Shown: positions 41,328 through 61,963 of the stretch, piece by piece
Position numbering within the stretch: position 1 is the stretch's first letter
Layout: each line of letters begins with the position of its first letter
NCBI GenBank assembly: GCA_963665115.1
Contig: OY762007.1
Span: forward strand, 6,688,001 to 6,752,000
Direction of reading: 5' to 3'
DNA length: 64,000 nt
From: an uncultured Rivularia sp.
GTDB taxonomy: Bacteria > Cyanobacteriota > Cyanobacteriia > Cyanobacteriales > Nostocaceae
The notes under the pieces: generated by a model
Databases searched by the model: none
What the model was told of the DNA's origin: nothing
Seen by the model: only the letters and a program-made list of their open reading frames with translations
Translations under genes and position numbers: made by a program

Positions 41328-42143
41328 TCACTGCAATTTCAAAAACTTATCTAAAGCAGCGACCATACTATCGGGCCAGCGTCGCACGTTTTTCACCCAA
41401 TCAATATCTTTATAACGACGATCTAATCCATAAGCTGCTACCCAATTGCTCTCGGCTTCACCTTTTTCTCCTTTTGCCCAAAGTGCTGCGGTAAGGGATG
41501 CGCGTACATCGGGAAACTGAGGATATTTACGGATAATATTTTTCATCTCTCGTATAGCTTCATCTTTTTGACCAGTCTCATAAAGCGCGAGAGCATAATT
41601 AGCACGAGCAAAAGCGAAATTTGGAGCTTTTTCCGCCGATTTTTGATAGTCTGCTATAGCTTCATACCATTGTCCCAAACCAGCTTTGGCATTTCCCCGA
41701 TTATTGTACGCCATTGCATCCGACGGATCTAATTTTAGAATATAGTCATAATCAGCGATCGCCTCATCCCATCTTCCCAAACCTTCTAAAGCAGCTCCTC
41801 TATTTAAATAAGGATCTGTCACATTAGGAGCAATTTCTATAGATTTGTTAAAATCTGTTAGCGCTTCTTCTAACTTGTTTTGACTAATTCTAGAATTCCC
41901 TCGATTACTCCAAACTGCGGGATTGTCAGGGAATTTCTCAATGATTTTTGTCCAATACTCTTCAGCTTCAGCAAAATCACCTTTATTAGTAGCAGCGAAA
42001 GCTTTATTCCCTAACTCATCTAGCTGTTTTAATTCTTCTTTTGTTGGTTCAGAAGTTTGAGTGGTTAGAGCGAAAACAGGCTCAACCCAGCTAAATAATA
42101 AAAGTAAACTTAGTAATATTCCGATTAGTTTCATCATAATCAA
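41328..42143 (-). CDS. Exported TPR-repeat protein
   Basis: Signal peptide; repeated NRG..A.LG..EA..D TPR units. Confidence 0.88.
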   Translation of the reverse strand: MIMMKLIGILLSLLLLFSWVEPVFALTTQTSEPTKEELKQLDELGNKAFAATNKGDFAEAEEYWTKIIEKFPDNPAVWSNRGNSRISQNKLEEALTDFNKSIEIAPNVTDPYLNRGAALEGLGRWDEAIADYDYILKLDPSDAMAYNNRGNAKAGLGQWYEAIADYQKSAEKAPNFAFARANYALALYETGQKDEAIREMKNIIRKYPQFPDVRASLTAALWAKGEKGEAESNWVAAYGLDRRYKDIDWVKNVRRWPDSMVAALDKFLKLQ

Positions 42144-42245
42144 TGAAATTGATAGTAGTTAGTAGATAGTAATTAGTCGATAGTAGTTTAGAAATTGAAC
42201 AATCAACTACTAACAACCAACCACTAACAACTAACTATTTTGACG

Positions 42246-43357
42246 TTAGGAGAGCAAAGACAACTGTTCGTTTGGTGGTTTAAAACCCAGATGCTTGTAA
42301 GCCGCAGGTGTTGCTACCCTACCACGAGGAGTCCTTTGTAAATAACCAATTTGCATCAAATATGGTTCGTATACTTCTTCAATTGTTTGGGTATCCTCAC
42401 CCGTAGCGGCGGCAATCGTGTCTAATCCTACCGGGGCCCTCCACTAAACTGTTCTACTATCACGCTTAACATTGTTCTGTCAGTCCAATCTAAGCCGCAG
42501 GGATCTACCTGGAACAGTTGTAGCGCCTCTCCTGCGACATTTTCATTTATTTTACCGGATGATTTAACCTCGGCATAATCGCGAACTCGCTTGAGCAATC
42601 TATTGGCAATACGCGGCGTTCCTCTGGCTCTACGTGCAACTTCTAATGCCCCATCTTTAGTTACTTCGGTTTTGAGTACTTGAGCAGTTCGTAAGACAAT
42701 TTGACTGAGTTCTTCTACTTCATAAAATCTCAGTTTTTGAATTAAACCAAAGCGATCGCGCAAGGGAGAACTCAGCGCTCCGACACGGGTTGTTGCTCCA
42801 ACTAAAGTAAACTTTGCTAAAGGTATACTGCGGGTACGAGCGCTAGAACCTTTGCCTACAGTAATATCTAAACGATAATCCTCCATCGCCGGATATAATA
42901 TTTCTTCAGTCATCCGAGAGAGGCGATGAATTTCATCAATAAAGATAATATCTCCAGGTTTAAGATTAATGAGCAGTCCCATAATATCTCTAGGACGTTC
43001 CAAAGCGGGAGCGCTGGTAATTTTGTAGTTTACTCCCATTTCAGATGCTAAAATCATTGCCATTGTAGTTTTACCCAGCCCCGGAGGACCATAAAGCAGC
43101 AGGTGATCTAATACTTCACCTCTGGATTTAGCTGCTTTGATTGCAATGTCAAGTACATCTTTTAAATCTTTTTGCCCAATATAATCGGCAAATTGCTGTG
43201 GACGAATAGCAACTTCACTATTATCAATATCATCTGTAGCTGCTTGGGGTTGCAAAAGTTTTTCGTCACTTGGTTTTTTCGCAGCTTTTTTCAGATGACT
43301 CTTTTCCTTGTCTGGTTCTTGAGGCTGGGGCTGTTTTTTAGAGGAGATAATCGCCAT
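42246..43357 (-). CDS. ruvB: Holliday junction branch migration helicase; frameshift at ~42433-42439
   Basis: [26 protein letters not shown]-terminus [40 protein letters not shown] continues in another frame to TAA at 42246. Confidence 0.95.
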
Positions 43358-43530
43358 AGTCCGCTCATAGATAGTGTTTTACTTGTTCTAAAAGTGAGAG
43401 CAATGCTTGTTTTCATCACCGTAAAAAATGCGAGAAAACACTGATGCCAAAATTTTTTTTGTCGAGTAAGCTTCGTCAGCTTTAAAATTTATATTTCAGG
43501 TAAATACGATGGGAGTGCTTTCATAAAATC

Positions 43531-44298
43531 ATGCTAGCTAAGAGAATCTTACCGTGCTTAGATGTCAAGGCGGGACGTGTTGTAAAAGGAGTTAATTTTG
43601 TAGACCTTAAAGATGCTGGCGATCCAGTAGAGTTAGCAAAGGTTTACGACGAAGCTGGTGCAGATGAGATAGTGTTTCTGGATATTACAGCTACTCATGA
43701 AGATCGAGGCACCATTATCGACGTAGTTCACCGAACCGCAGAACAGGTATTTATTCCACTCACCGTAGGTGGAGGAATCCAAACCTTAGAAAATGTTAAA
43801 GAACTGTTACGAGCTGGCGCAGATAAGGTTAGTATTAATTCAACAGCGGTACGAAATCCAGACTTTATTAATCGGGCCAGCGATCGCTTTGGTAATCAAT
43901 GTATTGTTGTAGCTATTGATGCTAAACGAAGGTCAGATACAGAGAACTTTGGTTGGGATGTCTATATTCGTGGTGGACGGGAGAATACTGGTTTAGATGC
44001 CCTAAAATGGGCCAAAGAGCTTGAAGAAAGAGGCGCAGGAGAACTATTAGTAACAAGCATGGATGCTGATGGAACTCAAGCCGGTTATGACATTGAATTA
44101 ACAAAGTCAATCGCAGACTCTGTAGGAATTCCAGTAATCGCTTCCGGCGGCGCTGGAAATTGCGAACATATATACTCAGCCGTTACCGAAGGTCAAGCGG
44201 AAGCGGCACTATTAGCATCGCTTTTGCACTACGGACAGCTTAGTGTAGCGCAAATCAAGAACTACTTAAATGAGCGAAAAATTCCAGTGCGAAATTAG
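43531..44298 (+). CDS. hisF: Imidazole glycerol phosphate synthase cyclase subunit
   Basis: [29 protein letters not shown]. Confidence 0.98.
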
Positions 44299-44405
44299 CT
44301 TTAGAAAGAAAAAATGAAGCGATTATCAATATCTAAATTAGCTCAACACGGTTCTTAGAAAGGATGTTAATATAAATTAACAATAATTAATATAAATTAA
44401 GAAAT

Positions 44406-44600
44406 ATGTTGATTCCAATTTTAGTATTTGATGTAGCTTTAGTAGCTTGGTCTTTACACCTAATGGAAAGGGCTGTTGAAGACAAAGAATTTTCATTGAT
44501 GTTGGCTGGTATGTTGGTTGCCCTAGCAGCCGCCGCGATGATGGTAGTTTACTTCCTGATGGGGCACTGTATGAGCTACTTACTACAAGCTTCATCATAA
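44406..44600 (+). CDS. Small two-TM hypothetical protein
   Basis: 64-aa ORF with two hydrophobic helices. Confidence 0.6.
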   Translation: MLIPILVFDVALVAWSLHLMERAVEDKEFSLMLAGMLVALAAAAMMVVYFLMGHCMSYLLQASS

Positions 44601-44700
44601 TTTTTTAATTGCTAAATAATTAGTGTTATTGTTATTTTTCTTAAAACTTGTATATTGACAAATAGTAGAGAATTAAGGCATCATTAAAGATGCATTTTGC

Positions 44701-44773
44701 GGGGTTATAGCTCAGTTGGTAGAGCGCCTCAATGGCATTGAGGAAGTCAGCGGTTCGAATCCGCTTAGCTCCA
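44701..44773 (+). tRNA. tRNA-Ala(GGC)
   Basis: GGGGTTA acceptor with G3:U70, AGCTCAGTTGGTAGAGC D-arm, CCTCA-ATGGCAT-TGAGG anticodon arm, GGTTCGAATCC T-arm. Confidence 0.97.
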
Positions 44774-44804
44774 TATTTTGAGTAAGTTATAGATTAAAAC
44801 CTGG

Positions 44805-44877
44805 TGTGACTTTACCCATAACTTTGCCGCAACGGCAAGCTTATGCTTCCAATAAAATGTGGCAAACTTATGGTTCC
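44805..44877. repeat. Transposon end with three putative TnsB-binding sites
   Basis: ttacccataactttgccgc (44812-44830) plus inverted copies ggaagcataagcttgccgt (44832-44850) and ggaaccataagtttgccac (44859-44877). Confidence 0.8.
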
Positions 44878-45047
44878 ATTTTTTCGTTATAATTTTTAAC
44901 ATATGTTCTGTGCTTCATCTTGTCTTACGAAGTAACACATTAATTATGGTTAGCTTAGTGATTTTTTACTTATAAATACTTGACTTTTTCAAATCTTGTG
45001 AAATGAACCGTATTACATAGTGAAGTACATAATGTGGGTTTTAAGCT

Positions 45048-46415
45048 TCATAACCCAAGTTCGCGATTTGCTTCTTTAAGAGCTAATCTAACCTTCTTGT
45101 ATCGGAAGTAACCTGGCTTGGAAACTAGTTTTGAAACAGCAGATTCAGAGGGATATTTACCTTGATTATGTAGCTTTAAAGCAACTAGCCGCACTTCCTG
45201 GCAGCACTCCTCTAATGTTTTTTTATGGTAATCTTTCTGATAGCTGATATACCTGGCAGAAATAGCGCGACATAAATCTGGAAAATATTTGTAAATCGTT
45301 CTTCTATCAATTCCTAACCGTCTAGCTACTTCTTCCATCGATAAAACAGGAGACTCATCATTTGTGAGTAAAGCTTCTAAGTCGGATTTAACTTTCTCAG
45401 AATTAAATGGCTTACTCTTTTTTCTTGATTTGCTTTTAACTTCAGTTGTTAATAATTTCTTTGAGATGCATAAATTATTAGGTTCTTCTGTCAAAAAGCT
45501 GAGAATTGATACTCCAAGAAAGTAACAAATATTTGTTAGTGCTTTAAGAGAAGGTGAATTTTTACCTTTACACCAGAGCCAAACAGTATTTCTGGGAATA
45601 TTAATTTGACGAGCAAATTCAGCTATATTTCCTTCTGCAATTTGCTCAACCCATTTAGATAGATTGAGAGCGATTGTATTAGAAGATAAAGAATCATTCA
45701 AATATGGAGTAGCAGCAATCAATTCTCCAATAGTTTTAGCAATCCATATTTTCTGTTCTAGCTCATTTTTTTTCAAAGTGTTCCTGTTGGCTGATTCTTG
45801 GGATAGAGTCTGCCCTAACCACTTTCCACATTTTGAACAATATCCTGGTTGCGATCGCCAAGCCAGCGTAGTGTTTTTTTGATGACAATTACGACACTCA
45901 AAAATTAATTGATAGTTGTGATATGGGCATATTTCCACTACATCTAGCGACCAAAGTAAAGGCTCATAAATTAATTGTTTTTTCTCGTACCATTCTTGGT
46001 AACAAATTGGACACCAAGCCCTAACAGGGCGCAGTAAATTTCTAGAAGGGAATAATTTACACCAAGTTAGTAAAGTGAGAAAGCATAAATTGTCACGTAG
46101 TGTTAATTTCTGTAGAGCTTGAACTAAGTCCTGTGCCATGACACCGCTACCGTTTAGCGCAGTAGTGTATTTATAGATTTTGTGTAAATTAGCACTTCCA
46201 TACTTTTTGTTAACAAGTGCTGCGAGTTCCTTTTCCATTAAAACCCCTGGATTAACACAATGAGCCTCAGCTAATCGAGATATGTAACCAGTTAAGCTTT
46301 CCACTAATGGAGTGCCAATACCAACAGGCTCTAATTGATATAACCGACTACGAGATGGAATAGCAAGCTTCTTTAAATCCCAAGTTTCGTATGTTTCTAA
46401 TGCACTAGCTAACAT
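45048..46415 (-). CDS. tnsD: Long TniQ/TnsD-like target selector with C-terminal HTH domains
   Basis: ESLTGYISRLAEAH, WCPIC, CPYH, CRNC, CSKC; HTH-like IAEFARQINIPRNTVWLW and MEEVARRLGIDRRTIYKYFP; start set at ATG 46415 overlapping the tnsC stop. Confidence 0.85.
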   Translation of the reverse strand: MLASALETYETWDLKKLAIPSRSRLYQLEPVGIGTPLVESLTGYISRLAEAHCVNPGVLMEKELAALVNKKYGSANLHKIYKYTTALNGSGVMAQDLVQALQKLTLRDNLCFLTLLTWCKLFPSRNLLRPVRAWCPICYQEWYEKKQLIYEPLLWSLDVVEICPYHNYQLIFECRNCHQKNTTLAWRSQPGYCSKCGKWLGQTLSQESANRNTLKKNELEQKIWIAKTIGELIAATPYLNDSLSSNTIALNLSKWVEQIAEGNIAEFARQINIPRNTVWLWCKGKNSPSLKALTNICYFLGVSILSFLTEEPNNLCISKKLLTTEVKSKSRKKSKPFNSEKVKSDLEALLTNDESPVLSMEEVARRLGIDRRTIYKYFPDLCRAISARYISYQKDYHKKTLEECCQEVRLVALKLHNQGKYPSESAVSKLVSKPGYFRYKKVRLALKEANRELGL

Positions 46416-47556
46416 CTTCCTGTACTCCGATAGGATCTCTTTTAGGTTTGCGTTTGCCAACCTTTTTTGAAGGACGGGTAGTTTTTGGAGTTTCTTCTGG
46501 TGGCGCGATTGATTTTGCGCCAAGTCCTAATGCAGAACGTAAGTTTTGTACATCTGCTTCTGTTTCAGATAATTGTCTTTCTCCTTCTTGAATTTCTTTA
46601 AACATCCTCTTACATTGAGCAACCGACCAAGCGCGTTGTTGCAAGTATTTGAGCGAAACGGTTGCTGCTTCTCTATTGAGAGCATCTTTAAAAGCGCGTG
46701 TTAACCAATTTTTCAGTATGCCAACACATCCTAAAGTACGCTCATAAAAATATTCCCAATGACTAACTAAATCTGGAGTTTGTGCTAGCGGCATATGCTG
46801 TTGGAAAGTTAACAATACGCTTTTGAAAGCCTTTACGTCTTCTGGATTATCAGCACAATAGCGGCGAAAATGAATATCAACGCTACGCCGCGAGAGTTGA
46901 CCGCTTAAATTACGAAATGTAAGTAGTTCGTATGTTCCTAATAGACAGTGCAAAATCCCTGTCATATTTGCTAGAGATTTGAGACAATCTAATTGATCTT
47001 GAAGCTTGTGTCCGCTTGCCATCTTGCTAAAATGTTGTGCTTCATCTACAAAAAATACGTCAGGATGGCGATGCTTGAGAGCATTTTCTAAAGCTCTGCG
47101 TAAAGCAGGTGCATATACTTTCGACCCAAAATTTATTTTGCCAAAATTATCGCGAGAGATACCACGCACACCATAATCAAACTTGTAATCGATTAAAGGT
47201 TCTTCTAAGGCGATTAAGGCACGTGTGTAGTAATCTTTCCAATTAAAGTTTCTCGATTCTGGGGCTACGGCTTCAACACCAACAACAGGAACACGACCGC
47301 GATCGCTTTCCAGTAATGATAATGCTAGTTCTGTTAATTTCTGCTCAACACGGAGTCGCAAAGTTGTTTTACCGACACCGCTAGCACCGTAAACAAAGAT
47401 AAATGATGCCCCTGCGGGTTCGGCAATTGTTCGCATGAGGATGTCATAGACTTCCATAAGTCGAGGATGCGCTACGGTGTAATTCTCAAAGTAAGCAAGC
47501 CTTTCTGTAGGAGGTTGTTTGAGGAGTTCAGGCGAAAATCCAGTAGATTTTGTCAT
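46405..47556 (-). CDS. tnsC: Tn7-like AAA+ regulator
   Basis: HPRL, GASGVGKT, FFVDEAQH, QLSRR; lies between transposase and tniQ. Confidence 0.9.
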   Translation of the reverse strand: MTKSTGFSPELLKQPPTERLAYFENYTVAHPRLMEVYDILMRTIAEPAGASFIFVYGASGVGKTTLRLRVEQKLTELALSLLESDRGRVPVVGVEAVAPESRNFNWKDYYTRALIALEEPLIDYKFDYGVRGISRDNFGKINFGSKVYAPALRRALENALKHRHPDVFFVDEAQHFSKMASGHKLQDQLDCLKSLANMTGILHCLLGTYELLTFRNLSGQLSRRSVDIHFRRYCADNPEDVKAFKSVLLTFQQHMPLAQTPDLVSHWEYFYERTLGCVGILKNWLTRAFKDALNREAATVSLKYLQQRAWSVAQCKRMFKEIQEGERQLSETEADVQNLRSALGLGAKSIAPPEETPKTTRPSKKVGKRKPKRDPIGVQEDVS

Positions 47557-47558
47557 AA

Positions 47559-50273
47559 TTAAAACTCCTCGTAAACTACAAGTGTATCTGGGACAATCAC
47601 TTCATCTTCAGCCATTTGAGTATCAGTATTTTCAAAACTAGCTTGAATAATTTTTGCTTGTTCGTTACGGCTTGTTGTTGTTTTCCCGCCGTCAATTACC
47701 CTAAAGACTTCCCTAACTTCTGCATCATAGGAACGCTGTTCTAGTAGAGCTTCTTGTGCTTCTACTGATGCTAAAAATTCTGCTAGATTCTTAGCAGAAA
47801 CTTGAGATTGCCGTCCATGATTTGAGGAGCGTTTGCGTAACTCAGCACTAGCTAACTTCAATTCCTTTTCTGAACGACCTTGGAATTCTGCATAATATTG
47901 AGAAATACACTCTACCCACTGTTTTCCAACAAAAGCGTGAGCGATACCAATATTAAATGGGTCGTATCTTATCTTCACAGAAGTATTTTCAATTTGGGGG
48001 TCGCGAAAACTATTAGACCAGTAGTAGATTGAGTTAATTTTTACACCACGTCCAATTTGAACTTTTGCTTTCCCACTTGAAGTTGTAGGTAGGGTAAGAA
48101 TCTGAAAGTTTTCGTCGTAAGAAATCATGCGGTGAATCCGACTGCCACCAATTGCTATCCCCGCAGCAAATGCATCTCTCGGACTCTGGAAAAGTGCTGG
48201 GTGTTCGTTTGTATCGTAAACTTTGTAAGCCCAAGTACAAAGATGTTCATAAAGTGAACCAAGTGTCCATACAGCAAGATTTTTAGGGTTCACTGATTTG
48301 GTTACTTGGCGGACGTTACGGGTTATTTGTGTATTACCGAGTAAGTTATGGACAAATTGAGTATTGGATGTGCCAAATAGGCGTTCGCAAACCGAACCAA
48401 AACGAGCTTTGGCTGGGGGTCTTTGTTTTTTCGTACATTCAAAAGTAGCTAGTAGTGTTTCAAAGTAAACGCTGTGAAACTCTGTACCGTTGTCTACGAC
48501 TACAATTTGGGGAAGCCTACCGTGACGCTTAACACAAATTCTTAGCGCCATTAAGCAAGAACGATATGAAGGTGAGTCAAAGGTTAGGTAAACTGCCAGC
48601 AATCGCCGTGAGTAAGCATCTACAAGAAATGTCGCCCAAGGTCTGCCAAGATTGCGACCTGTACGAGAGCAAACTAGCTCTACATCTAACTCGGTATGAT
48701 CTATATGTCCAATTTCAAAGGGGCGATCGCCATGTCTTGGGGTAGTTGTAGTCAGTTCATAATAGAAGGATTCATGCTTGTAAGCGGCACGACGACCTTG
48801 ACGTTTTTTAGTTTGTTCGTAACCAGTACGGCGTTTTACTTCTTTGGTAAATGCTTTGTAACTCGGAGCAATTACACCAGATTGTTCGCAAGCTCGAACT
48901 AAAGCCCCGTGAACCTCCCGCATTCTTTTTTGTTTTAAAGTTTCATAGTCTTCTAAAATAAATTTCTCCATAATTGCTAAGGTGTCTTCGGGCAACTTGC
49001 GCTGACGATTACCTTTGACACTGCGATGGGACAAAAGCCCAATGTAGCCGCAACCGTATTTTTGCTGTGCAGTTAGATATTTAGCTTTCCAGTCACGAAT
49101 GGTACGGGCTGATGTTGTTTCGTTTTCTGGGGGATGTCCGTTTAAGTAAGGTTCGATAGTTTTGTAGCGTTCAAGGGCTTCTGCTTGGTCTTCTGGACTA
49201 GCTTGATAAAATCGCTGCCAAGATTCTTTGCTAATAGCTGTTGTTTCTGGTGTTTGGAGACTTGTGATTTTTCCTTGGCGAACCAGATTCTCAAATACAG
49301 CTTTTTTGAGTTCAATTAACTGATTATTTTCTGCGCCAAGTATAATCTCTGTTTTGCCTACGTGGATGATATTTAAACCTTTGCCGTCCCAAATAACAGG
49401 TGTTCCAATGGTTAGATTGATTACAGGAGAGATAGCCGGAAGACTTACACTTGGCTGCTCAACCATTAATCTATAAGCGCTGGCAGTTTCTTCGTCACGA
49501 AAGATGAGACATCTTTCTGGTTCTGCAAGTGGTGTAGTATTTAAATCAAAATAGATTTGCTCTTGCGTAATTAAGGTGTAGATGTCGTCAGATTTAGCAC
49601 CTGTTGACTGTTCGAGTAATTCGGCTAAAGTGATTCCTGGTTGAGACGAAACAATTTCCACTAATGATTGAGCGATCACTTCTTCCACTACTAGGGATTC
49701 GGTTCGGTAATAATCTTCTAAAAATTGCAAATTACGTTGCAAGACCCAATTAATTTCCCTATCTGAACGAATGTGGTAATAAAGCCCAATCTTTTCAGCA
49801 TATACTTCTCCTGGCGGACAATGCCATTGATTATCTTCTTGAGAGTAAAAGTAACGATTGGGGTTTTTCTCTGCTAGTTTTTTCAAATCCTGCTCAGTTT
49901 TACACTCTTCCCAACCAGCAGAATTAGTTCGGATGACAAAGAAATCCGGGGTATGGAAAACGCCTAATTTACGTCCGTTACTTCCTTGATAGTCAAGTTT
50001 AATTTGTGGTGGTTGATCGTAGAATTCTAAAACATCTCGATTGTGTTCTAACTGATAAATAATTGGCAGTTCAACCCGATGAGACTCAAATTGAATTGTG
50101 AATCCCATCTTGCGACTAGGGTAGCGTCCCGAAACATTCTTGCTACCGCCACCAACGCGACGGGATGGTTCAGATGAGCGAACTTTCTCAATTATTTTTT
50201 GCCCTGCCTCGGATATTTGAAGGCGAGCAACCCATTGTTCAAATTGCTCTTTCATATAGTCTTTACTAAGCAC
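47559..50273 (-). CDS. tnsAB: TnsA endonuclease-TnsB DDE transposase fusion
   Basis: N-terminal FESHRVE...YDQP...TPDF...ECK (PD-D/ExK); HIDHT, VDNGTEF, CERLFG DDE triad; Mu-type C-terminus RYDPFNIG. Confidence 0.9.
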   Translation of the reverse strand: MLSKDYMKEQFEQWVARLQISEAGQKIIEKVRSSEPSRRVGGGSKNVSGRYPSRKMGFTIQFESHRVELPIIYQLEHNRDVLEFYDQPPQIKLDYQGSNGRKLGVFHTPDFFVIRTNSAGWEECKTEQDLKKLAEKNPNRYFYSQEDNQWHCPPGEVYAEKIGLYYHIRSDREINWVLQRNLQFLEDYYRTESLVVEEVIAQSLVEIVSSQPGITLAELLEQSTGAKSDDIYTLITQEQIYFDLNTTPLAEPERCLIFRDEETASAYRLMVEQPSVSLPAISPVINLTIGTPVIWDGKGLNIIHVGKTEIILGAENNQLIELKKAVFENLVRQGKITSLQTPETTAISKESWQRFYQASPEDQAEALERYKTIEPYLNGHPPENETTSARTIRDWKAKYLTAQQKYGCGYIGLLSHRSVKGNRQRKLPEDTLAIMEKFILEDYETLKQKRMREVHGALVRACEQSGVIAPSYKAFTKEVKRRTGYEQTKKRQGRRAAYKHESFYYELTTTTPRHGDRPFEIGHIDHTELDVELVCSRTGRNLGRPWATFLVDAYSRRLLAVYLTFDSPSYRSCLMALRICVKRHGRLPQIVVVDNGTEFHSVYFETLLATFECTKKQRPPAKARFGSVCERLFGTSNTQFVHNLLGNTQITRNVRQVTKSVNPKNLAVWTLGSLYEHLCTWAYKVYDTNEHPALFQSPRDAFAAGIAIGGSRIHRMISYDENFQILTLPTTSSGKAKVQIGRGVKINSIYYWSNSFRDPQIENTSVKIRYDPFNIGIAHAFVGKQWVECISQYYAEFQGRSEKELKLASAELRKRSSNHGRQSQVSAKNLAEFLASVEAQEALLEQRSYDAEVREVFRVIDGGKTTTSRNEQAKIIQASFENTDTQMAEDEVIVPDTLVVYEEF

Positions 50274-50468
50274 TTAACGCTTTATTTTTTGGATCTATCA
50301 AACCAGGAACTGCTACGTATTTAGTTTTTATAGTACTAGCGAACTATCGGATATACGCTACGCGCAAGCTGCGGCTAACGCAATACAAGTTTTTCAAATT
50401 TTTGTATTATTCAATGCCCGCTCCACATCAGCTTAAGACCTTGTTTAGCTGATGTTATATTATTTTAA

Positions 50469-50500
50469 CACTTATAGTGTGCAAAACTTCACTGATAGTA
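50469..50500 (+). promoter_or_regulatory. C-box-like tandem operator (CACT-TAT-AGTG ... CACT-GAT-AGTA)
   Basis: Two palindromic boxes 21 bp apart, directly upstream of the Xre gene. Confidence 0.55.
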
Positions 50501-50537
50501 GGTAGATTTTACAGCGATACTAGTTCACTATTATTTT

Positions 50538-50798
50538 GTGGCACTAAAACACTTCAGTATTGAGTACCGTTTTGGCAGAGCGATTAGGCGGCGAAGGCGA
50601 GAGCTAGATTTGTCCCAAGAGGAACTGGCTGAGAAGTCAGGGCTTCATCGCAACTACATCTCAGGTATAGAAAACGGAGAGCGGAACCCTTCATTGAAAA
50701 ATATTGCTAAGTTAGTGGCAGCTTTGGAGATATCTGTCTCCGATCTGTTTGTGAATTACCGCATCGAGGTTAAAGGTGAATCAGAAGCTAGTTCCTGA
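50538..50798 (+). CDS. Xre/C-protein-like HTH regulator
   Basis: LSQEELAEKSGLHRNYISGIENGERNPSLKNI. Confidence 0.9.
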   Translation: MALKHFSIEYRFGRAIRRRRRELDLSQEELAEKSGLHRNYISGIENGERNPSLKNIAKLVAALEISVSDLFVNYRIEVKGESEASS

Positions 50799-50848
50799 CA
50801 TTTGGCTTTTAAAACTAAAGTGCGAGCGTTTAGGTTAATCCCAGAGGG

Positions 50849-51846
50849 ATGACTATGACTATTTACTTAGAACATTGGAACCTAAAACCTCCAGAAATAC
50901 CGCAACGGAGTAGGTTATTTTGTCTTGAACCTGTGGCGGTGGGAACTCCCTATGCAGAAAGTCTTAGTAGTTATCTTCATCGTTTAGCGCAGGAGCATTG
51001 TTTAACCTCTCAAAAACTGGTTATGGGAGAAATTGCGCCACTTATCCTCAAAAATGAAGATAAATCTGAGCTATTGAAAAAAAATGTGAGTCACCTGTTG
51101 GGAAATAGCGACGCTAAACCAGCTATCAACGGAATGCGAGAAATGACAGGACAGTTAGTCACTGTCTTAGAAGAGTTAACAATGCGTCAAGATTTACGCT
51201 TTTTGACCCTTTTAAGCTGGAAAGGAATGATTCATGACAAGGGGTTATTTCGGAACCATCGCGCTTGGTGTCCCCTTGTTGTTTGGAAGAGTGGAAGCAG
51301 GAGAACAAAACTATCTATGAGCCGTTATTATGGTCATTTAAGGACGTAGAATTTTGTTTGATTCACAAACAGCGATTAATAGAAGAATGTCCTCATTGTG
51401 GTTCGCATTTACCTGCGATCGCTAAGTTGTCATCTGCGGGATTTTGTTCTCGTTGTTACGGGTGGTTAGGACAGGAAATTAAAGGCGAAGAGGAAATTGA
51501 GAAATATCGAGTTAAGATTCAAGGAATTAGCGAATTAATTGCACTTACTCCACAATTAGGATATGAACCCATCCCAATCGAGTTAACCCGAAAATTACAA
51601 CTAATTTTGTTAGTGTTTGAACAAGCAATTGGGAAAGATTTGCTGTTATTGGGAGATTTAGGGAGAATTATGGAATCTTTGAAGATAGCCTCAAAAACAA
51701 ATCAAAATCAACCTTATCATTTGGTAAAGTTGATTATTCCCGTGTGCGAGAAGGCGAAGATTAGTGTATCCCAGTTGTTTGGGTCAGATTTTAAGGAATT
51801 GGGCAAGATATTATTCGAGAATTTTGGTCTGGAATTAAAGTTGTAG
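50849..51846 (+). CDS. tniQ: Short TniQ (~330 aa when restored); frameshift at cccc 51272-51275
   Basis: RSRLFCLEP...ESLSSYLHRLAQEH; restored RAWCPCC, CLIH, CPHC, CSRC; no long C-terminal HTH extension. Confidence 0.85.
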
Positions 51847-52414
51847 AAATTTTTAAATAACATTACACCCCAATTCGGGTTTTGCTGAATCGTGCGGATG
51901 AATTGGGAATTTCACATTATATCGGAAAGTGCAGTGCTACGTCTCTACATAGGGTTTGCTGAAAATACTTTGGTTGGAGTTAGGAATGGGAAATACTTTA
52001 ACCTCTATGTGTTGACAGTTTTTTGAAGTCCACAAAATTAGAGATACCTTTGTTTTAAGCCTTATACTCCTATAAAGATTTCACTTTCTTGTCGAAAAGT
52101 CTTTTGAAACGCTTATAGTGCTGCTTGCTATGCAGAATCTCCCTATCATCGAATCGAGTGGCAGTTTCAGAAGATGGGGGGATGCGATCGCCATTCCCTA
52201 TAACAGAACCGCAGTAACAAATAAACTATTATTAGCTGCGATTAAACCCAGGCATGAACGTCACAATCACATAAGAATCACAAAGAACTAAACATACAAA
52301 GTCTAATGATAATAAGGCTTTCCGCCTTTTATATTTTTAAAATGCAATGCTTATGCAGCGTCTCAGTCACATAACAGTGACATAAGAATTATACAAAGTA
52401 GGCTTCAAGACGAT

Positions 52415-53872
52415 TCATGCCCAAAATGGTACATACTTTGCGTGCTTTTTAGAAGTATTTTCTGGATCGTAAGGTTTTACTAAGTCCGCATCTATTGTGT
52501 CTGAAATAATACGAGATGCCATTGAGTAATTCTTATCTTTTATAGAAAAACGCTCTCTTAGCGATGAATTGGTCATGTAATCATGTGACACATAGCGCAA
52601 GCAAGCGTGTTGGTAACAAGCTCTAACTCTATCTGCTTTATCCATATCTGACAATTTTTTGTAAGCAAAAAGTGTTGCTTTCGTATGGTTGCTTGTGACT
52701 ACAAACTCAGGGGCTGGTAACTGGAAAAGTTCTACTGCGTTGATAACTTTATCAATACCAGTTCCTCGTTCTTCACAAATATTTATACGACGCATAAAAG
52801 CAGCTAAGTCCTCATTACGAGAACGAGGTGGTTCATCAATAAACCGCATTGTATCTATAAGTGGCACTCCTGGATTGGTAATCTCAATCCGATCCGAAAA
52901 AATTTCAATTATCGATCCGGTGCCAGTCATATTAAAATCTTGGTGAATAATTGCGTTTGCAACTAATTCTCGAATGGCAATTTCTGGATACATTCTTTGT
53001 TCTTCACGAAAAGCTTTACCAATCCGTTCATTTTTAGGTAATTGATTATTAATAAATTCCACTACTTCTTCATAATCAATAGCATAGCCTTTAAAACCTG
53101 TTCGTTCTCGCTGAGTTTCAATCCTATTTTTTCCTTTATAAATTACAACCCGGATTGCTTTTCGTGACAATCGCTCAAACATTTGTAAGTCTTTAGCGAA
53201 AAGAATAGCACCTAAATTTGTTATATCAAAAAAAACATCGGTTTTTTTGACAATAAGCTTTTCTGAAATTAATCGGTTTAATATGCCATCTCTATTTTCT
53301 GGTAATGGCTGTTTTGTTAAATCAAAATAGGCTGGGTAATTTATATTTTTGATTACCTCATCTACCATTAATTTTTCTAAAGCAATGCTTTTTTCAAATG
53401 GTTCTAGAGAAAATAAAACCCATAGTTGTCTTTCTTTTTCTTCAAAATCTCGAAGCTTTTTTTTGTAAGTTCCTATACGAATATATTCAATCCCTTTAAA
53501 ACGTACAGGAACGTGAGTCGCTTTAGGTATTTCAAAAATGACTATATCCTTACCTTCATAAGGGAATTCATGTATTTTAAAATTGATTCGAGGAGATAAT
53601 TGTGTCGCTAACCAGTTTTCTAATTCTTGATTTCCAATTTTTTCTAATCGAGGCTTAAAATTAGTACCAACAATATCATGGTTATCGTTATTGATACCCC
53701 AAACTAAATAAGCAGTATTTTTACCATGCAGAGTAGCTGAATTTGATAACGCCGATAAGTATTCACCTATGTCTTCTGGGCTACTATTATTTACTTTAAA
53801 TTCAACCCATTCTGTTTCATGGGGTAGAGATGTTAATCCTGCCAACAATGATTCTAAATAATCTGCGTCCAT
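52415..53872 (-). CDS. AlbA_2 (Schlafen-like) + HATPase_c_4 + winged-helix protein
   Basis: ETEWVEFK, ALSN, AIRELVANAIIHQD, RNEDLA, EERGTGIDK. Confidence 0.85.
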   Translation of the reverse strand: MDADYLESLLAGLTSLPHETEWVEFKVNNSSPEDIGEYLSALSNSATLHGKNTAYLVWGINNDNHDIVGTNFKPRLEKIGNQELENWLATQLSPRINFKIHEFPYEGKDIVIFEIPKATHVPVRFKGIEYIRIGTYKKKLRDFEEKERQLWVLFSLEPFEKSIALEKLMVDEVIKNINYPAYFDLTKQPLPENRDGILNRLISEKLIVKKTDVFFDITNLGAILFAKDLQMFERLSRKAIRVVIYKGKNRIETQRERTGFKGYAIDYEEVVEFINNQLPKNERIGKAFREEQRMYPEIAIRELVANAIIHQDFNMTGTGSIIEIFSDRIEITNPGVPLIDTMRFIDEPPRSRNEDLAAFMRRINICEERGTGIDKVINAVELFQLPAPEFVVTSNHTKATLFAYKKLSDMDKADRVRACYQHACLRYVSHDYMTNSSLRERFSIKDKNYSMASRIISDTIDADLVKPYDPENTSKKHAKYVPFWA

Positions 53873-54182
53873 TTTGTTAATTCAGACTTACCATAAATAA
53901 TTAACTACTAAAAAATTTTGCTCCAATTTGATTGGAATAATTAATTCAGCTAAAATCACATACTCTGCTTTGCTCAAATAGGTTTTTAAGCAGAAATAAA
54001 TTATTTTTAATTACCCAAATAAATCTCTAAAGAGAAAACGTTTCTCAAAATTTTGGGAATTGCGATTTTACGGGGGAAATTGCAAAATCAGTTATTAATT
54101 ATATCTTATGGCTACTACATACCTTACCTAAAAGGCTATTTAAAAAGTATTTTGAAATTAGTCAAAATCTTCCCCTACCTAT

Positions 54183-57153
54183 TTAGTAATACTGCTTTAT
54201 GTATTCGTAAGCTTTCTCAAACAACTCTTTATCCTTGTGGAGCGTATATTTCAACAGCGTTTTTCGTAATGCTTGCTTAACTTCCCTCTCCCCAGCGCTG
54301 GTTTGCTGCCAACCGGGAAACCTGACCAGACGCACGATTTCATCGATATCATTGACTATTCGTTCAACCATTTTCGGGGTTTGGTCGTTGCGAACTTCTG
54401 TAAATAATTCGGTTAGTGCTGCTTTACCCCTGTCTTCGTCTTTTTCAACGGGATTATCTTTCTCTGCTAGAAGTAAATCCTTTGCTAAGTCAAGTAATTC
54501 TTTAAGAAAGGTAACGCTATAGATTTGTCCTTGTTCGTGACGTTCTTTCATCGCTTCTAAGCGTTCTGATAATTCTCGGAAGCGGGGATTCCCGATATGT
54601 TTACGAAGACGATTAGCGATTTTTATCTCGATTTCTTGCGACTTTTTGCGGGGATTGGGAGAATCAAGAACTATTTCTAATACTTCGGCATTAAGGACTA
54701 TTTCGTCTAGGTCATCGCGAACTGCTTCTACACTAATATTTTCGTGGATGAGTTCGATGGTTTTTGCCCCTAATGAATGCCAAATAAGTCTACCCATACC
54801 TGTTGTCGGTTGTACGGACACGTAAACTTGGGACAGCCATCTGTAATCAACTTCGTATTGTTGCAAAATCGGGTCAGGTGAAATTGCTTCCCACAGGTTA
54901 GAAAGGTAGCTGTAATCTTCTGCGAAAGTATCGCGGGTATTGTTATTAGGCAAACACTCCTGTGCTGCTATAAGCCCTTCATAACCTGTAAGGCTACGGT
55001 CTACTCCCAAAAAGTAACCAAGGCATTTTTGTATTGCTCCTGGTAGCTTGTTTTTTAAGATGGAAATTCCGGATACTACTTGTTGAAACCCTTCCTCGTC
55101 AAACTCTAGCGCTTGGGCGACATCATCAAATACACCCAAATAATCTACTACTAAACCGTGGCTTTTTTGATTGCCGTAGGTGCGGTTGGTGCGGCAAACG
55201 GCTTGCAGTAAGGTATGTGCTTTAAGGGGTTTATCTAAATACATCGCTTGTAAAATAGGTGCATCAAACCCTGTCAGCAGTTTGGCTGTGACTACCAAGA
55301 TTTTCATTGGGGTCGGTGGAATCGCGGAATCGATCCAGGAGTTTTTCTTCTTGGTCGCGGGTGCGTTGATAGGGTTTGAAGCGTTCGTCCTTACCTGTGG
55401 CAGAGATTATAATTTCGATGGCTTCGCTGGGCAGGTGTTTTTCTAGTTCGGCTTTATAGAACAAGCAACATTCTTGATCGTAGGTGACGACCATTGCTTT
55501 AAAGCCGTTGGGAGCGACTTTTTCTTTGTAATGTTGGGCAATGTCGGCACAGATGTTTGTTATTCGATCGGGGACTTTTACCAGCACCGCCATTCTTGAT
55601 GCTGTTTTGGCAAGGTTGTCCCGGTCTAAATCGGATAATCCTCCAGTTAACTCAGCGTAAGCTTGGTCAATTGCATCATGGTCAATATGTATTTCCACCA
55701 AACGTGGCTCAAAATGTAGAGGTAAGGTTGCTCCGTCGCGGATGGATTCTTCAAAGCCGTAGCGACTCATGTAACCGCGTTCGTCTTCTTCTGCACCAAA
55801 AGCATAAAAGGTGTTTCTGTCCCTTTGGTTAATTGGTGTACCTGTAAAGCCAAACAGAAAAGCATTCGGTAGTGCTGCTCGCATTTTAATTCCCAAGTTG
55901 CCTTCCTGAGAACGGTGTGCTTCATCTACCAGAACAATGATATTTTCACGAGGGTTGAGAACTCCGTCGGCTTCTCCAAATTTAAAAATAGTGGTGATAA
56001 TAATCTTGCGCGTGTCCTGCTTGAGCAACCTTTCTAGCTCTTCACGGGTTTCTGCTTTCACCAAGTTGGGTATATCTGAAGCATGAAAAGTGGCGCTAAT
56101 TTGGGCATCTAAATCAATGCGGTCTACAACAATCAGTACTGTGGGGTTACGCAGTTTGGATTGTAAACGCATTTTTTGAGCCGCAAATACCATTAATAGC
56201 GATTTACCTGACCCTTGGAAATGCCAAATTAAGCCTTTTCTGGGTCTACCCGCAATAACGCGGTCAATAATCAGATTAGCAGTTTCGTATTGTTGATAGC
56301 GGCAGATAACTTTGATGCGGCGCTTTTTCTTATCGGTAGCAAATAATGTGAAGTGATTGAGAATATCAAGAATAACGCTGGGATTAAGTAGAGAAGCAAT
56401 CGTATGTTTGAGGGCTGCAAGGCTAGTAGGAGGTGCGTCATCATCAAGTCGCCAAGGACACCAGAGGTCTAAGGGCATACGAATGGAACCGTAGCGTAAT
56501 TCTTTGCCTTCTGTGGCTACGCTGAAGACGTTACAGGCAAATAATTCGGGGACATATTTTTCATAATCATCATGCACCTGCAATGCTCCATCTACCCAAC
56601 TAACTGCTTTTCGCACCGGAGTTTTGGCTTCTATTAGGATAAGGGGAAAGCCGTTAACCAGCAGCACTAAATCGGCTCGGCGTTCTTCTGCACCAGCGCG
56701 GTAAGTGTATTGGGTGGTGAGAATATATTGATTATTTTCTAGATTGTCAAAGTCAATCAGGCGGACGGGTGTGTGTTCGTAGTTGGTGCCAAAAGGCATG
56801 GTGCGATCGCCACGCAACCAAGTGGTAAATTCTTCGTTAGCGCGGATGAGTCCATCACTGCGGACTGACAGTACTATTGCCCGTAAGCGGTAGAGAACTT
56901 CTTCTGCTCGGTTAGGGTTAGCGGCGATTTCAGGATTGAGCCGAATTAAGGCATCGCGGACAAAGCTTTCAACGAATACTTCTTGTGGTTGGCGGGGGAT
57001 ATTTTGTGAGGGGAGATAGTGCCAACCTACACCGTTGATTTTTTGATTGGTGCATGATAAGCCAGGTTGAAGTGATGCGGTTTGGGTCACTTTACCGCAG
57101 AGGATATCACGGACAAAGGCTTCGACGGTGTTGGATTCGTTGAAATTATTCAT
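54183..57153 (-). CDS. hsdR: Type I restriction endonuclease subunit R; frameshift at gggg 55309-55312
   Basis: ADLVLLVNGFPLILIEAK, QGSGKS, DEAHRSQ, FTGTP, LLTGFDAP, QAVCRTNR; one-base removal gives DPMKILVV. Confidence 0.92.
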
Positions 57154-57905
57154 GCTTTATCTATTAAGAACAAAACCTAGAACTTTTTTTTTGAATTCTT
57201 GCAATAAAAATAATCTTTTTTTGAATTTTTTTTCAGTAGACTTTAAATTACATAAATTAGCTACTACTTCCTTTTGTCGCTCTAGATTGGGAATAGGGAC
57301 ATTTTGCGCTAAAAGTTCTGAACCACTAATATTTTTTTGAACACCACCGCGTGCCAATGAAGATGTTAGTTGCTGTCCTATAGGAGACAAAAAAAATTCA
57401 TTCAAGTATTCCGGTAACATCTTTTTATTAAGACGTAATCTGATGAGGAAAGCCGCCGCAGGAATGGTAGGAACATTTTGAGAACGATAAACTGCTGTAA
57501 TTCCACAAGTACCGCTACGACTAATCACAATATCCCCTTCTTTTAGCAAATGCTCCTTGTATTGCTCAGTAACTAGTTTTACTCGTGGAATTGTAGAGTA
57601 GTTAATATTTCCATCGCCATCTAAATCGGTCGTGCGAAGTTGCCAAAGTTCTCCATTATCGTCATAGAGTGAGTTACTAAATCGAGGTCCATAACGGGAA
57701 TCCTCAATTACTTGCTTTAGCTTAATAGTTTTTAAGTTTTGATCGGCAGAGAATGAATAGTGAGCAAATGATTTCCGAGTAGTTTGCGTCACTAAAATAG
57801 TCTCTACATAAGATTCGATAGTTTTTTCAACTGCACAAATAAGGTCTTTAATTCGTATCCCCTCAAAATTTCGGGGTATCGGCTGTCTTGAATGTCAACT
57901 ACGAT

Positions 57906-58065
57906 AAAAAAAAGCAGCGGCGCAACTGGGGAACCGCTACGCTGATTTGACGGTACCAGGTAGGGGCAGATAGATTTTACATAGGCACAGAAAATAATCG
58001 TGCCCCCACCTGGCACTCCGCTGTCGCCGCCAAATCTTCCCCAGTTGCTGGATCTCTCGTGAGAG
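57906..58065 (-). ncRNA. Putative structured RNA in the 3' non-coding part of the IS66 element
   Basis: Nested stems 57922-57933/58037-58048, 57944-57952/58028-58036, 57953-57968/58001-58016; mismatches are G-U only on the minus strand; ends in U8. Confidence 0.55.
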
Positions 58066-58276
58066 CAACAAATAAATAAAAATAATCAAAATCAAGAAAT
58101 TGATTAATAGCGGAAGTTGCAAATAAGGTAAATTGTAAATATGCTATCAAAGTAACTAAAAAAGTTTCAATCGCTTATAAAAACTATGAAGAAATAGATG
58201 TGGTTAATCCATGCACTTTACAGTATTCTACAACCAAGGATATGAGGGTTTAGCACAGTCTTAATATACAGGGGTG

Positions 58277-59965
58277 TTATTGAGGCATCCATGACCAACC
58301 ATAGGAATTAGAAGAAGATTTCTTCCGAATAATTGTCCCCAAAGATGGAATATTTTCAACTTGAGAAATGCGGTCACGCATATACTCATAAAAACTGATA
58401 CCCAACTTACGAGTAGTGTCAACAAGGGACATAAAAACATCCCACGCTTTTGTGCCTTGTTTTGTCTGGGTTGCGTAACTGATGTTACGTCGTTGTACCA
58501 TAGTCCTAGCAGCTAATTCGGCAGGGTTGTTATGCAATAGTAATTCTGGATGCTCCAACACGAGAAGCAACTCGTTTACTTTCAAAGTAGTTAATCGTTT
58601 TCGCTCATCTAACTGTTGATAACCACTTTTTTCTGTAAAAAGTGTCCAAAATTCCATTTCTAGTTCGTGAGCTTTATCCCAACTTGGAGAATCTCGATAA
58701 GATAATAATTTTCTGTAATATTCCCAGAATCTTTCTAGAAAATTATCTAAAAGTTTTTGATGGCAAGGTATAAGCGGACTTAATTTCTTATAATGTCGTC
58801 CTTCATGCACCCAACAAAGAGCCAAATCCGATGTTATTAACTTGAACTGCGGAGCATCATCGCATACTAGAGTTGTAATTACTGGTACAGTTGATTGCTG
58901 ATGATAAAAAGCAATTGCTGCCGATTCATATATGCGAGAACGGTGTTGAGAACCAAGTCTACTTAAGTACTCACCAATCAAAAAATTAAACTCAGTTTCG
59001 GTAAAAGCCTTCTGTTGAGATAGTAATTTTAGTTTATTAACCCACTTAATTGGAACTTTAAAAGTCTCCAAAAGTTCATAGGTCATCTCGTTGAGAACAA
59101 AGGAGAGTTCGGTTGTGTTTTGAAATACTTTTAATACAGTCAAACGGTCTTTGTATCGCGTTGTTTGGTAAATTGTGTACAAGGGGTTACAAATCACATT
59201 TGTTGTATGGTTCACTCCTGCAACACGCGCACCTGTTTGGTCAAAGTGTTGCCAAGGACTGCTGGCTAACCCTTCCTTGTATACTTCTTCGTATTCAGCT
59301 TCAAAATATTCTTGGTTTTTAATTAATAAATTTGATATTGTTCCTGCACTAATCGAGATACCAATATCTTCTAAAAATTCTAATAACTTCCCTTGGGTCA
59401 TGTTTCCACCATAATATAGACTCATGACCAAAGCTTTTACTCCTGGACCAAATTCACCTTCGTAACCTGTTGGTAGTTCCGCTAAATAAGTTTTTCCTGT
59501 TTCTGGTGAGTAGTATTTTTGCTTGCGGAACAGTATGTTATCTGGCTTAAGTAAAATGTCTTGGACTACTACTTCCTCATAACCCTTGAACTGTGCGTCT
59601 GCTGGTAATTGTTCTTGTGGGTAAACTACAATCTCTTCTCGGTTTATCTTGATAGACTCGTTTTTACTTGCTTTACTGTGTTCTTTTGCTATTTTTCGTT
59701 CTTTTTCTGATGAATAGTTTTTCTTAAACCCTTTGTTTTTATTCGCTTTGATGTCTGGTTTACCTTGTTCACCTTTTAAGCGGTTGTTTTCATCACGTAG
59801 TTTTTGATTTTCTTCTTCTAATTCTTTGATTTTTACATTTAGCTGTTCTATTAAGTTGAGTAATACTTCTACCGTTTGACGCACGTCCTCGTCTGCAATC
59901 TGTTTTGGGTCGATTGATTGCAATAATGCTGTGACTAATTTTTTAGATGATCGTTTTTGCGTCAT
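58277..59965 (-). CDS. IS66-family transposase
   Basis: N-terminal coiled coil; HFDQTG, LVCDD, LCWVHEGR, HNNPAELAAR. Confidence 0.9.
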   Translation of the reverse strand: MTQKRSSKKLVTALLQSIDPKQIADEDVRQTVEVLLNLIEQLNVKIKELEEENQKLRDENNRLKGEQGKPDIKANKNKGFKKNYSSEKERKIAKEHSKASKNESIKINREEIVVYPQEQLPADAQFKGYEEVVVQDILLKPDNILFRKQKYYSPETGKTYLAELPTGYEGEFGPGVKALVMSLYYGGNMTQGKLLEFLEDIGISISAGTISNLLIKNQEYFEAEYEEVYKEGLASSPWQHFDQTGARVAGVNHTTNVICNPLYTIYQTTRYKDRLTVLKVFQNTTELSFVLNEMTYELLETFKVPIKWVNKLKLLSQQKAFTETEFNFLIGEYLSRLGSQHRSRIYESAAIAFYHQQSTVPVITTLVCDDAPQFKLITSDLALCWVHEGRHYKKLSPLIPCHQKLLDNFLERFWEYYRKLLSYRDSPSWDKAHELEMEFWTLFTEKSGYQQLDERKRLTTLKVNELLLVLEHPELLLHNNPAELAARTMVQRRNISYATQTKQGTKAWDVFMSLVDTTRKLGISFYEYMRDRISQVENIPSLGTIIRKKSSSNSYGWSWMPQ

Positions 59966-60522
59966 GCTTCATATTCTACGACGCAAGGTGTACCTTTACC
60001 CCATTTTTTTGAGCGGATACTTTAATTCTATACTGTTCTTCTAAAGAAGGTAAATAAAACTCAAAATTCGCCAGACTCGTCCAATTTGTTCTCGGAGAAA
60101 GTGACCCAGATGAAGTCCCTACAGCATATTCAAAAAACCGCTCCGTTTGACAAATAAATGGCACTAGTTCAGGAAGTAGCACTTTAGGATCAGCGCTTTC
60201 CAACACATAAATATCACCAGAGCAAACACCTTCAAAATCAGCAACAGCAACCTTTCGCTGATAGGCTCGACGCTTACCAAATAAAACTTGTCCCGGCTTA
60301 AATTTGCTAGTAAAAGTTATTCCTTCAGCCACAAGACCCCAACGCCGAATGCGTAAATCATTGGGGTCAATATGCTCAAGTCCCACATATCGCTCAATAC
60401 CTTCTGCTTCTGGGTTCGCAGCACGGTCTTTACATAGACGTACCACATCGCCAAATTTTACCAATTTACACCCTGTTTTCAATGCATCAGCTTGTATCAT
60501 TACCTACTAATTCTAATAACCT

Positions 60523-61620: not shown

Positions 61621-61942
61621 GATAATTACCAATGAAAATAATGCAAACAGCAGTAACTTTCGACCAATCAATACTTCCATCCTTGGTTAAAGGTATGGGG
61701 TCGTCATATGGCTTGAATACAAGTCTTATACCACCTTCTAGGCATATTGCGAATTCACCAGCCCTATCTCCTGTTAAAGGATGGGGACGACCTGCAATTA
61801 ATTCCCTGACACAATTAACACCAGCAAGGTCAGCTATCCGGGCTTTCAATTTCTTAGCACAGTTTGCACCCAATTTTCTTTGCGCTAGTTTTTCTTCTTC
61901 GCATAATTTTTGCAATTTGCAATCGCCGAAAGTGATTTTCAT
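61613..61942 (-). CDS. higB: HigB/RelE-like toxin
   Basis: HPLTGDRAGEFAICL.GG.RLVF; upstream of and overlapping higA. Confidence 0.8.
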   Translation of the reverse strand: MKITFGDCKLQKLCEEEKLAQRKLGANCAKKLKARIADLAGVNCVRELIAGRPHPLTGDRAGEFAICLEGGIRLVFKPYDDPIPLTKDGSIDWSKVTAVCIIFIGNYHD

Positions 61943-61963
61943 GCGCTAGCATATTAGTACAAT

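Follow-up and report, generated by a model that had tools for sequence, protein, structure and literature searches.

Gene content and boundaries of the element

The stretch of DNA analysed here (the window) is 64,000 nucleotides of contig OY762007.1 from an uncultured Rivularia sp., G000:C1:6688001-6752000. The following 16 kb (L001, G000:C1:6752001-6768000) were also used, and an L001 position plus 64000 gives the extended window coordinate. A Tn7-like element was found beside a tRNA-Ala(GGC) gene. It spans window 44805-74572 and is 29.8 kb long, with 10,572 bp lying past the window's end. The transposition genes tnsAB, tnsC, tnsD and tniQ lie near the tRNA gene, and a CRISPR array and a cas operon lie at the far end. 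These tns genes are very probably one half of a complete type I-B2 CRISPR-associated transposon (CAST). It would be closely related to PmcCAST, and its own TnsD most likely placed it 31 bp past the tRNA gene.

Three genes of the element, all on the minus strand, are transcribed toward tRNA-Ala. The tnsAB fusion transposase gene (47559-50255, 898 aa from the aligned start) lies in a single open reading frame (ORF) of 904 aa that extends to 50273. This ORF contains the N- and C-terminal Pfam domains of TnsA, an rve integrase core, and a Mu-transposase C-terminal domain. Its residues 7-904 aligned to residues 1-898 of chain 9bw1_M with 1846 bits, and it was the single TnsAB match in the whole genome. 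The tnsC gene (46405-47556) encodes an AAA+ regulator of 383 aa (Pfam AAA_22/TniB), and residues 1-383 aligned to PmcCAST TnsC 8fcu_Q with 748 bits. The tnsD gene encodes a long TniQ protein with TniQ and C-terminal helix-turn-helix (HTH) domains (Pfam TniQ, HTH_3), the predicted selector of tRNA-Ala. Its ORF (45048-46523) has 491 aa, of which residues 37-491 aligned to residues 1-462 of PmcCAST TnsD 8v32_J with 448 bits. This alignment points to the ATG at 46415 as the probable true start, so that the gene would span 45048-46415 and encode 455 aa.

Two genes on the plus strand are divergent from tnsAB. The upstream one is an xre-type HTH gene (50538-50798, 86 aa; Pfam HTH_3, E 2.6e-19), a probable regulator that is kept with 86% identity in a related element of genome G187. 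The other is the short tniQ (50855-51846, about 329 aa), predicted to encode the TniQ that couples to Cascade. In the assembly it consists of two overlapping ORFs, 50849-51349 and 51265-51846, and both pieces were identified as TniQ_IB by PADLOC. The C-terminal piece aligned to residues 140-329 of PmcCAST TniQ 8fcu_P with 372 bits. The element thus has one long TniQ with HTH domains and one short TniQ matching PmcCAST TniQ, as in type I-B2. Compared with the intact G187 element, tnsAB, tnsC, tnsD, and cas7 are full length.

The attachment-site gene, tRNA-Ala with anticodon GGC (44701-44773, plus strand), was the sole tRNA detected in the window by ARAGORN. The element terminus TGTGACTTTACCC begins at 44805, straight after the pentamer CCTGG (44800-44804) and 31 bp past the tRNA gene. 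Within the following 30 kb, its reverse complement, AAGTCACA, has a single occurrence, which ends at 74572 and has another CCTGG directly behind it (L001 10573-10577). The two pentamers, read from the sequence, are the copies of the target-site duplication. The terminal inverted repeats of the two ends match at 26 of 26 positions. The pairing of the ends is beyond chance, because the 24-nt terminus occurs at just two places in the 8.69-Mb genome, both of them ends of the element.

The tRNA-proximal end (44805-44878) consists of the 26-bp terminal repeat, beginning TGTGAC, and three repeats of about 20 bp, which are candidate TnsAB sites; one of the three is inverted relative to the other two. 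The distal end (L001 10417-10572) has the identical 26-bp terminal repeat and four repeats of about 20 bp, all in one orientation. According to Hsieh & Peters (PMC9881144), the left end of the TnsAB clade has binding sites in both orientations, and the left end adjoins the target in McCAST insertions. The tRNA-proximal end is therefore taken as the left end. The insertion, 31 bp past a tRNA gene with the left end nearest to it and 5 bp duplicated, is as expected of type I-B2, for which the spacing is about 30 bp. Between the left-end repeats and the tnsD stop, about 139 bp (window 44900-45038) have no counterpart in G187, where the end is much nearer tnsD.

Empty sites were found in three genomes of the same genus (G344, G348, and G349). 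In these, tRNA-Ala(GGC) is followed within about 40-120 bp by the homologue of the right flank, with no element between. A single-copy duplication could not be shown in these three sites, because the spacer past the tRNA is not conserved between genomes. The first 250 bp or so of the right flank (L001 10573-10820) hold short dispersed repeats of about 40-55 nt, which recur many times in this genome and in others of the genus. Because of these repeats, the empty sites are not alignable base for base.

A cas6-cas8-cas7-cas5 operon runs inward from the right end and occupies, with the array, window 67917-74339. Pfam and PADLOC identified its products as Cas6b2, Cas8b, Cas7b, and Cas5b. All four genes are on the minus strand: cas6 at L001 7506-10339, cas8 at L001 5923-7500, cas7 at L001 4986-5945, and cas5 at L001 4341-4980. 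The cas7 gene is intact, and residues 1-319 of its 319-aa product aligned to PmcCAST Cas7 8fcj_C over the whole length with 678 bits. About 250 bp past cas5 lies the CRISPR array (L001 3917-4094, minus strand), whose three 35-nt repeats are identical and whose two spacers have 39 and 34 nt. In the whole genome, the repeat occurs in this array only. No Cas10d was present among the PADLOC and Pfam results, and the element has no large Cas10d-like ORF. On these sequence comparisons the system is type I-B2 and not I-D, because it has Cas6b2, Cas8b, Cas7b, and Cas5b, it lacks Cas10d, and its Cas7 matches the PmcCAST chain throughout.

No Cas1, Cas2, or Cas3 domain was found in Pfam scans of the larger ORFs of the element, and the three cas1 genes of the genome all lie outside it. 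The element thus contains type I-B Cascade genes without an adaptation module and an array adjoining the cas operon, as type I-B2 systems do. The absence of cas1 from the element, with cas1 genes elsewhere in the genome, fits the spacer acquisition in trans that a review (PMC11406308) describes for I-B2 CASTs. Apart from short words expected by chance, neither spacer matched the genome at a second place. In a plasmid collection, the matches of spacer 1 were partial and weak, the best being 87.5% over 32 nt (E 0.04), and no target was identified; spacer 2 gave no match.

In Supplementary Table 1 of PMC9881144, the 18-nt terminus matches 26 end sequences, spread over 16 rows. In the row of Nostoc sp. 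210A, TniQ1, TnsC, and TnsAB are on one strand and TniQ2 is divergent about 485 bp away, which is the same gene order as here. PmcCAST comes from the Peltigera membranacea cyanobiont 210A (PMC11915506). A tniQ beside tnsAB with the cas operon at the far end is therefore a normal layout, since the 210A row shows this placement of tniQ and G187 the whole layout. The initial annotation had described the TGT end, the tnsAB-tnsC-long tniQ order toward the tRNA, and the divergent xre-short tniQ pair, and all were recovered in place by ORFs, Pfam, and PADLOC. The second end followed by CCTGG, which it had predicted, and the cas genes with an array beyond 64000, which it had offered as one of two alternatives, were located in L001. 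The core had been called I-B2/I-D-like; the I-B2 part of that label was retained and the I-D part was dropped.

Frameshifts, insertion sequences, and the RNA-guided arm

Contigs of four public runs were aligned to window 42001-62000. Runs X16 and X17 are of one organism, and X1 and X2 come from an independent biofilm-metagenome study. The frame of tniQ changes at 51274, after two extra letters (CC) at 51272-51273 that are absent from X17, X1, X2, and G187. The cargo gene hsdR has one extra letter at 55309, absent from X17, X1, and X2. As a control, the housekeeping gene ruvB near the element was investigated. It is also frameshifted in the assembly, its C-terminal domain continuing in another frame, and neither X17 nor X2 has the two extra letters at 42436, a position that X1 does not cover. 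X16 was the only run agreeing with the window at 42436, 51272, and 55309. Over 15.1 kb (42001-57137, two long contigs), five gap letters were the sole differences between X17 and the window.

Dropping the five extra letters restored single reading frames, as determined by ORF-coordinate arithmetic and three-frame translation. The corrected tniQ junction agrees with the PmcCAST and G187 proteins. All three insertion/deletion (indel) errors lie within GGGG or CCCC runs. The results show that tniQ, hsdR, and ruvB are intact in the organism and that their frameshifts are assembly errors in G/C runs. A dead second pathway caused by a tniQ frameshift, as contemplated in the initial annotation, was thus not borne out by the reads. 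Since such indels create false frameshifts and hence false pseudogenes, one of them in ruvB, other apparent pseudogenes in this genome need caution.

Three of the four cas genes are also disrupted in the assembly. In cas5, a 1-nt shift near window 68662 (L001 4662) changes the frame relative to G187; the site, GGAAACG, is not of the G/C-run type. The cas8 gene has one frame, but a TAA is present at 71084-71086 (L001 7084-7086) where G187 has CAA, which is a substitution. Both lesions were seen in the assembly only. They may be real, being unlike the G/C-run errors. The cas6 gene is cut in the assembly after about codon 84 by an insertion sequence (IS) of 2,166 bp.

The IS encodes a 562-aa transposase of the IS66 family and has terminal repeats that begin with GTATCCGCTCAAAA and end with TTTTGAGGGGATAC. 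The genome contains ten copies of at least 99.8% identity, each with an 8-bp duplication, which suggests that the IS was recently active. The copy in cas6 (window 71923-74088, L001 7923-10088) has the duplication TATAATAA, and a copy in the cargo gene hsdS (57855-60020) has the duplication GAATTAAA. Two of the ten copies are thus inside this single 29.8-kb element. The IS in cas6 is a structural feature with its own 8-bp duplication and is therefore unlike the indel errors. In an I-B2 system, TniQ contacts Cas11, Cas7, and Cas6, as stated in the review PMC11406308. Since TniQ contacts Cas6, the loss of Cas6 would be expected to disable RNA-guided targeting. The RNA-guided arm of this copy is probably disabled by the recently active IS in cas6, not by a tniQ frameshift.

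Alternative readings of the second pathway were considered. The initial annotation had raised the idea that the short TniQ was orphaned, or used a partner other than Cascade, in an element without cas genes. No cas gene is present within the 64-kb window, and Hsieh & Peters (PMC9881144) describe TnsAB elements with a second TniQ not linked to Cas. However, the cas genes seemed missing because the window edge cut the element. The type I-B operon and array inside the same element, and the alignment of the C-terminal part of TniQ to the Cascade-binding PmcCAST TniQ, refute this reading. It is also very unlikely that the RNA-guided pathway is fully alive in the organism, with all the cas-region lesions being errors of the assembly. 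The assembly is imperfect, since all three testable indels proved to be errors, and the cas5 shift involves one nucleotide within a short run of A. However, the proven errors were all in GGGG or CCCC runs, while the cas5 site is not such a run and the cas8 lesion is a substitution. Over the 15.1 kb of 42001-57137, X16 and X17 showed no letter differences beyond the three indels. The break in cas6 is one of ten copies of an IS and is not of the indel type. An RNA-guided arm disabled by the IS therefore remains the preferred reading.

One contig joins a left-end repeat of the CAST at 44830 (just after ...CATAACTTTGCCGC) to the first base of the IS terminus at 57855. It has about single-copy depth and is present in both runs of the organism (X16 and X17); the one-contig assembly has no such junction. 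It is possibly a third CAST end hit by the IS on DNA outside the assembly, such as a plasmid, or an alignment quirk. A rearrangement inside the element was considered as the source of the joint. The two positions share no sequence and the short side of the junction is 28 letters, so the joint was not used as evidence.

Predicted homing to tRNA-Ala by TnsD

TnsD was searched in 389 genomes of the same family. Matches were found in 172 genomes, own genome included, and the best 29 non-self loci were examined. The tRNA beside tnsD was tRNA-Ala(GGC) at 14 of these loci, tRNA-Ala(TGC) at 1, and tRNA-Val(GAC) at 6; at 8 loci the fetched stretch contained none. The terminus motif, with at most 6 mismatches, was present at 14 of the 29 loci. 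In all 14, the end lay 29-32 bp past the tRNA, and the spacers were unrelated in sequence. Elements at tRNA-Val had a TnsC 84-91% identical to the one studied here and a TnsD 48.5-50% identical. Elements at tRNA-Ala on distant chassis, with another terminus and a TnsC that was 43% identical or not adjacent, had a TnsD 54-58% identical. A maximum-likelihood tree was built from the 22 TnsD rows with a tRNA label, leaving out the eight loci without a tRNA. The Ala and Val rows were split on one branch with 100/100 support.

A second element family at tRNA-Ala (L014-L017, L019, L020, L022, and L029) has another terminus, TGCGACAACAAGC..., and a TnsD in the 54-58% range. In several of its members, a second TniQ-like gene adjoins tnsD.

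TnsD-only homing has been published for PmcCAST, and pTarget(PmcCAST) carries tRNA-Val (PMC10293859). The TnsD of McCAST is described in the literature as inserting 29 +/- 1 bp past tRNA-Leu with the left end adjacent, similar to PmcCAST. Homing to tRNA-Ala by the long TniQ (TnsD), which the initial annotation had proposed, is well supported by the cross-genome comparison of spacing, TnsD identity, and tree. As a Tn7-like or TnsD site, tRNA-Ala was not found in full-text literature searches; Figure 1C of PMC9881144, in which TnsD clades are labelled by tRNA, may show it. Supplementary Table 1 of that paper has no attachment-site column.

The chassis and Cascade closely match PmcCAST, and it is reasonably probable that only TnsD was exchanged, moving the site from tRNA-Val(GAC) to tRNA-Ala(GGC), with TnsD grouping by target tRNA across very different chassis. 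Such a difference in selector from PmcCAST is in keeping with the modularity documented for the TnsAB clade. By analogy with PmcCAST and McCAST, TnsD would bind the tRNA-Ala gene through its C-terminal HTH region. It would then recruit the TnsC ring and, after that, TnsAB, and the element would insert at a fixed distance downstream with the left end toward the tRNA. In the second pathway, TniQ on a type I-B Cascade loaded with CRISPR RNA would reach mobile DNA. Exchange of the homing selector would account for the change from tRNA-Val to tRNA-Ala.

An arrival at tRNA-Ala guided by a homing spacer, as in I-F3 or V-K CASTs, and not by TnsD, was also considered. The review PMC11406308 notes that dedicated spacers direct other CAST types to tRNA genes. 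In the present element, however, neither spacer matches elsewhere in the genome beyond chance words, and the long TnsD with its DNA-binding domains is kept. The site choice tracks the TnsD clade, and the 29-32 bp spacing agrees with the published TnsD pathway. RNA-guided homing is thus extremely improbable, and homing by TnsD is preferred. Another reading is that the whole element is an immobile fossil, which arrived in the past by TnsD homing and now moves by neither pathway. IS copies in two element genes, a damaged-looking RNA-guided arm, and the single copy of the element in the genome are consistent with it. However, the reading frames of tnsAB, tnsC, and tnsD are uninterrupted and complete, and TnsAB and TnsC have very high scores against chains of PmcCAST, a system active in experiments. 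Both ends carry the perfect 26-bp inverted repeat and internal repeats, and the independent metagenome study contains an almost identical copy, with 11 of 5,160 letters different. A fossil element is therefore unlikely, and an element retaining its protein-guided arm is preferred.

Several points weigh against the main interpretation, a PmcCAST-like CAST placed by its own TnsD. The counted loci come from related genomes and are not independent, and in 8 of the 29 the stretch retrieved held no tRNA gene. The identity gap between Ala and Val TnsD proteins (54-58% vs 48.5-50%) is consistent but modest. That TnsABCD is active and specific for tRNA-Ala is a prediction drawn from comparison. The cas5, cas8, and cas6 lesions were read from an assembly with demonstrated indel errors, which leaves the state of the RNA-guided arm uncertain. 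Neither this genome nor the plasmid collection yielded a convincing spacer target. The read-derived junction of 44830 with 57855 has no counterpart in the one-contig assembly.

Cargo and comparison with known systems

About 16 kb of cargo, which also includes an HTH-M78 protein, lies between tniQ and the array and is of defence type: type I restriction-modification, Schlafen/AlbA_2, and GmrSD. Five of its features are on the minus strand and were assigned by Pfam. These are a 485-aa Schlafen/AlbA_2 and HATPase_c_4 protein (52415-53872); hsdR (54183-57153; HSDR_N, SWI2_SNF2, T1R_D3-like), split in the assembly by its extra letter; hsdS (57157-60500), with Methylase_S on both ORFs flanking the IS and DDE_Tnp_IS66 between them; an ImmA/IrrE-like protein with HTH_3 and Peptidase_M78 domains (60523-61680); and two tandem overlapping hsdM genes (62108-63601, and 63589 to about L001 1100), both with N6_Mtase and HsdM_N. 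The hsdM pair belongs to a single type I restriction-modification locus that also holds the ImmA/IrrE-like gene. A GmrSD/DUF262 gene is on the plus strand at L001 1801-3567.

The element adds a well-delimited I-B2 CAST, with both ends, a duplication, and empty-site controls, and it is an ordinary member of a known family. Its TnsD, of a clade tied to tRNA-Ala(GGC), stands on a chassis near that of PmcCAST, which is handy material to dissect or swap TnsD specificity. If the selector exchange is true, such elements would be natural matched sets for how TnsD recognises a tRNA gene. They would also be a basis for orthogonal protein-guided safe-site integrators with interchangeable selectors. The element is probably also an example of a CAST that lost its RNA-guided arm to a resident IS and kept its protein-guided arm, the cas lesions being taken from the assembly.

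Among known systems, the closest is PmcCAST (Tn7744, type I-B2). Both have a TnsA-TnsB fusion, TnsC, TnsD, a short TniQ, and a type I-B Cascade. The gene order of the tns half is the same, the terminus is identical over the 18 nt searched, and both home downstream of a tRNA gene. TnsAB, TnsC, and Cas7 align end to end and the C-terminal piece of TniQ to residue 329, with very high scores against the solved chains. In contrast, TnsD has diverged much further (448 bits over 455 aa; about 49% identity in the tRNA-Val relatives). The site is tRNA-Ala(GGC) here and tRNA-Val there, and the cargo differs. In the present element an IS interrupts cas6, and the assembly shows cas8 and cas5 disrupted.

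At the DNA level, the G187 relative (L033, L034) is about 89% identical to the element studied here, both in the tns module (window 45039-51848) and in the cas module (67916-71922 and 74094-74572). It shares the tRNA-Ala(GGC) site, an end 31 bp from the tRNA, and the same family of array repeat. It differs in that all nine genes are open, the compared cas and tns genes have no IS, and the cargo is unrelated. The lengths of its proteins are 220 aa for Cas6, 543 aa for Cas8, 322 aa for Cas7, 212 aa for Cas5, 329 aa for TniQ, 95 aa for Xre, 898 aa for TnsAB, and 383 aa for TnsC; TnsD is a 491-aa ORF. Its array has 5 repeats and 4 spacers, none of them common to the element studied here.

McCAST (Tn7575) and CyCAST, of type I-D, are also members of the TnsAB-fusion clade with tRNA homing by TnsD. 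Their Cascade is type I-D with Cas10d, whereas the one here is I-B, and their core proteins are about 50% identical to those of PmcCAST, as published. Tn7 is similar in that a DNA-binding selector of the TniQ family reads a conserved gene and insertion occurs at a fixed downstream distance with a 5-bp duplication. It differs in having separate TnsA and TnsB, the glmS site, TnsE and not Cascade in the second pathway, and end sites in a single orientation.

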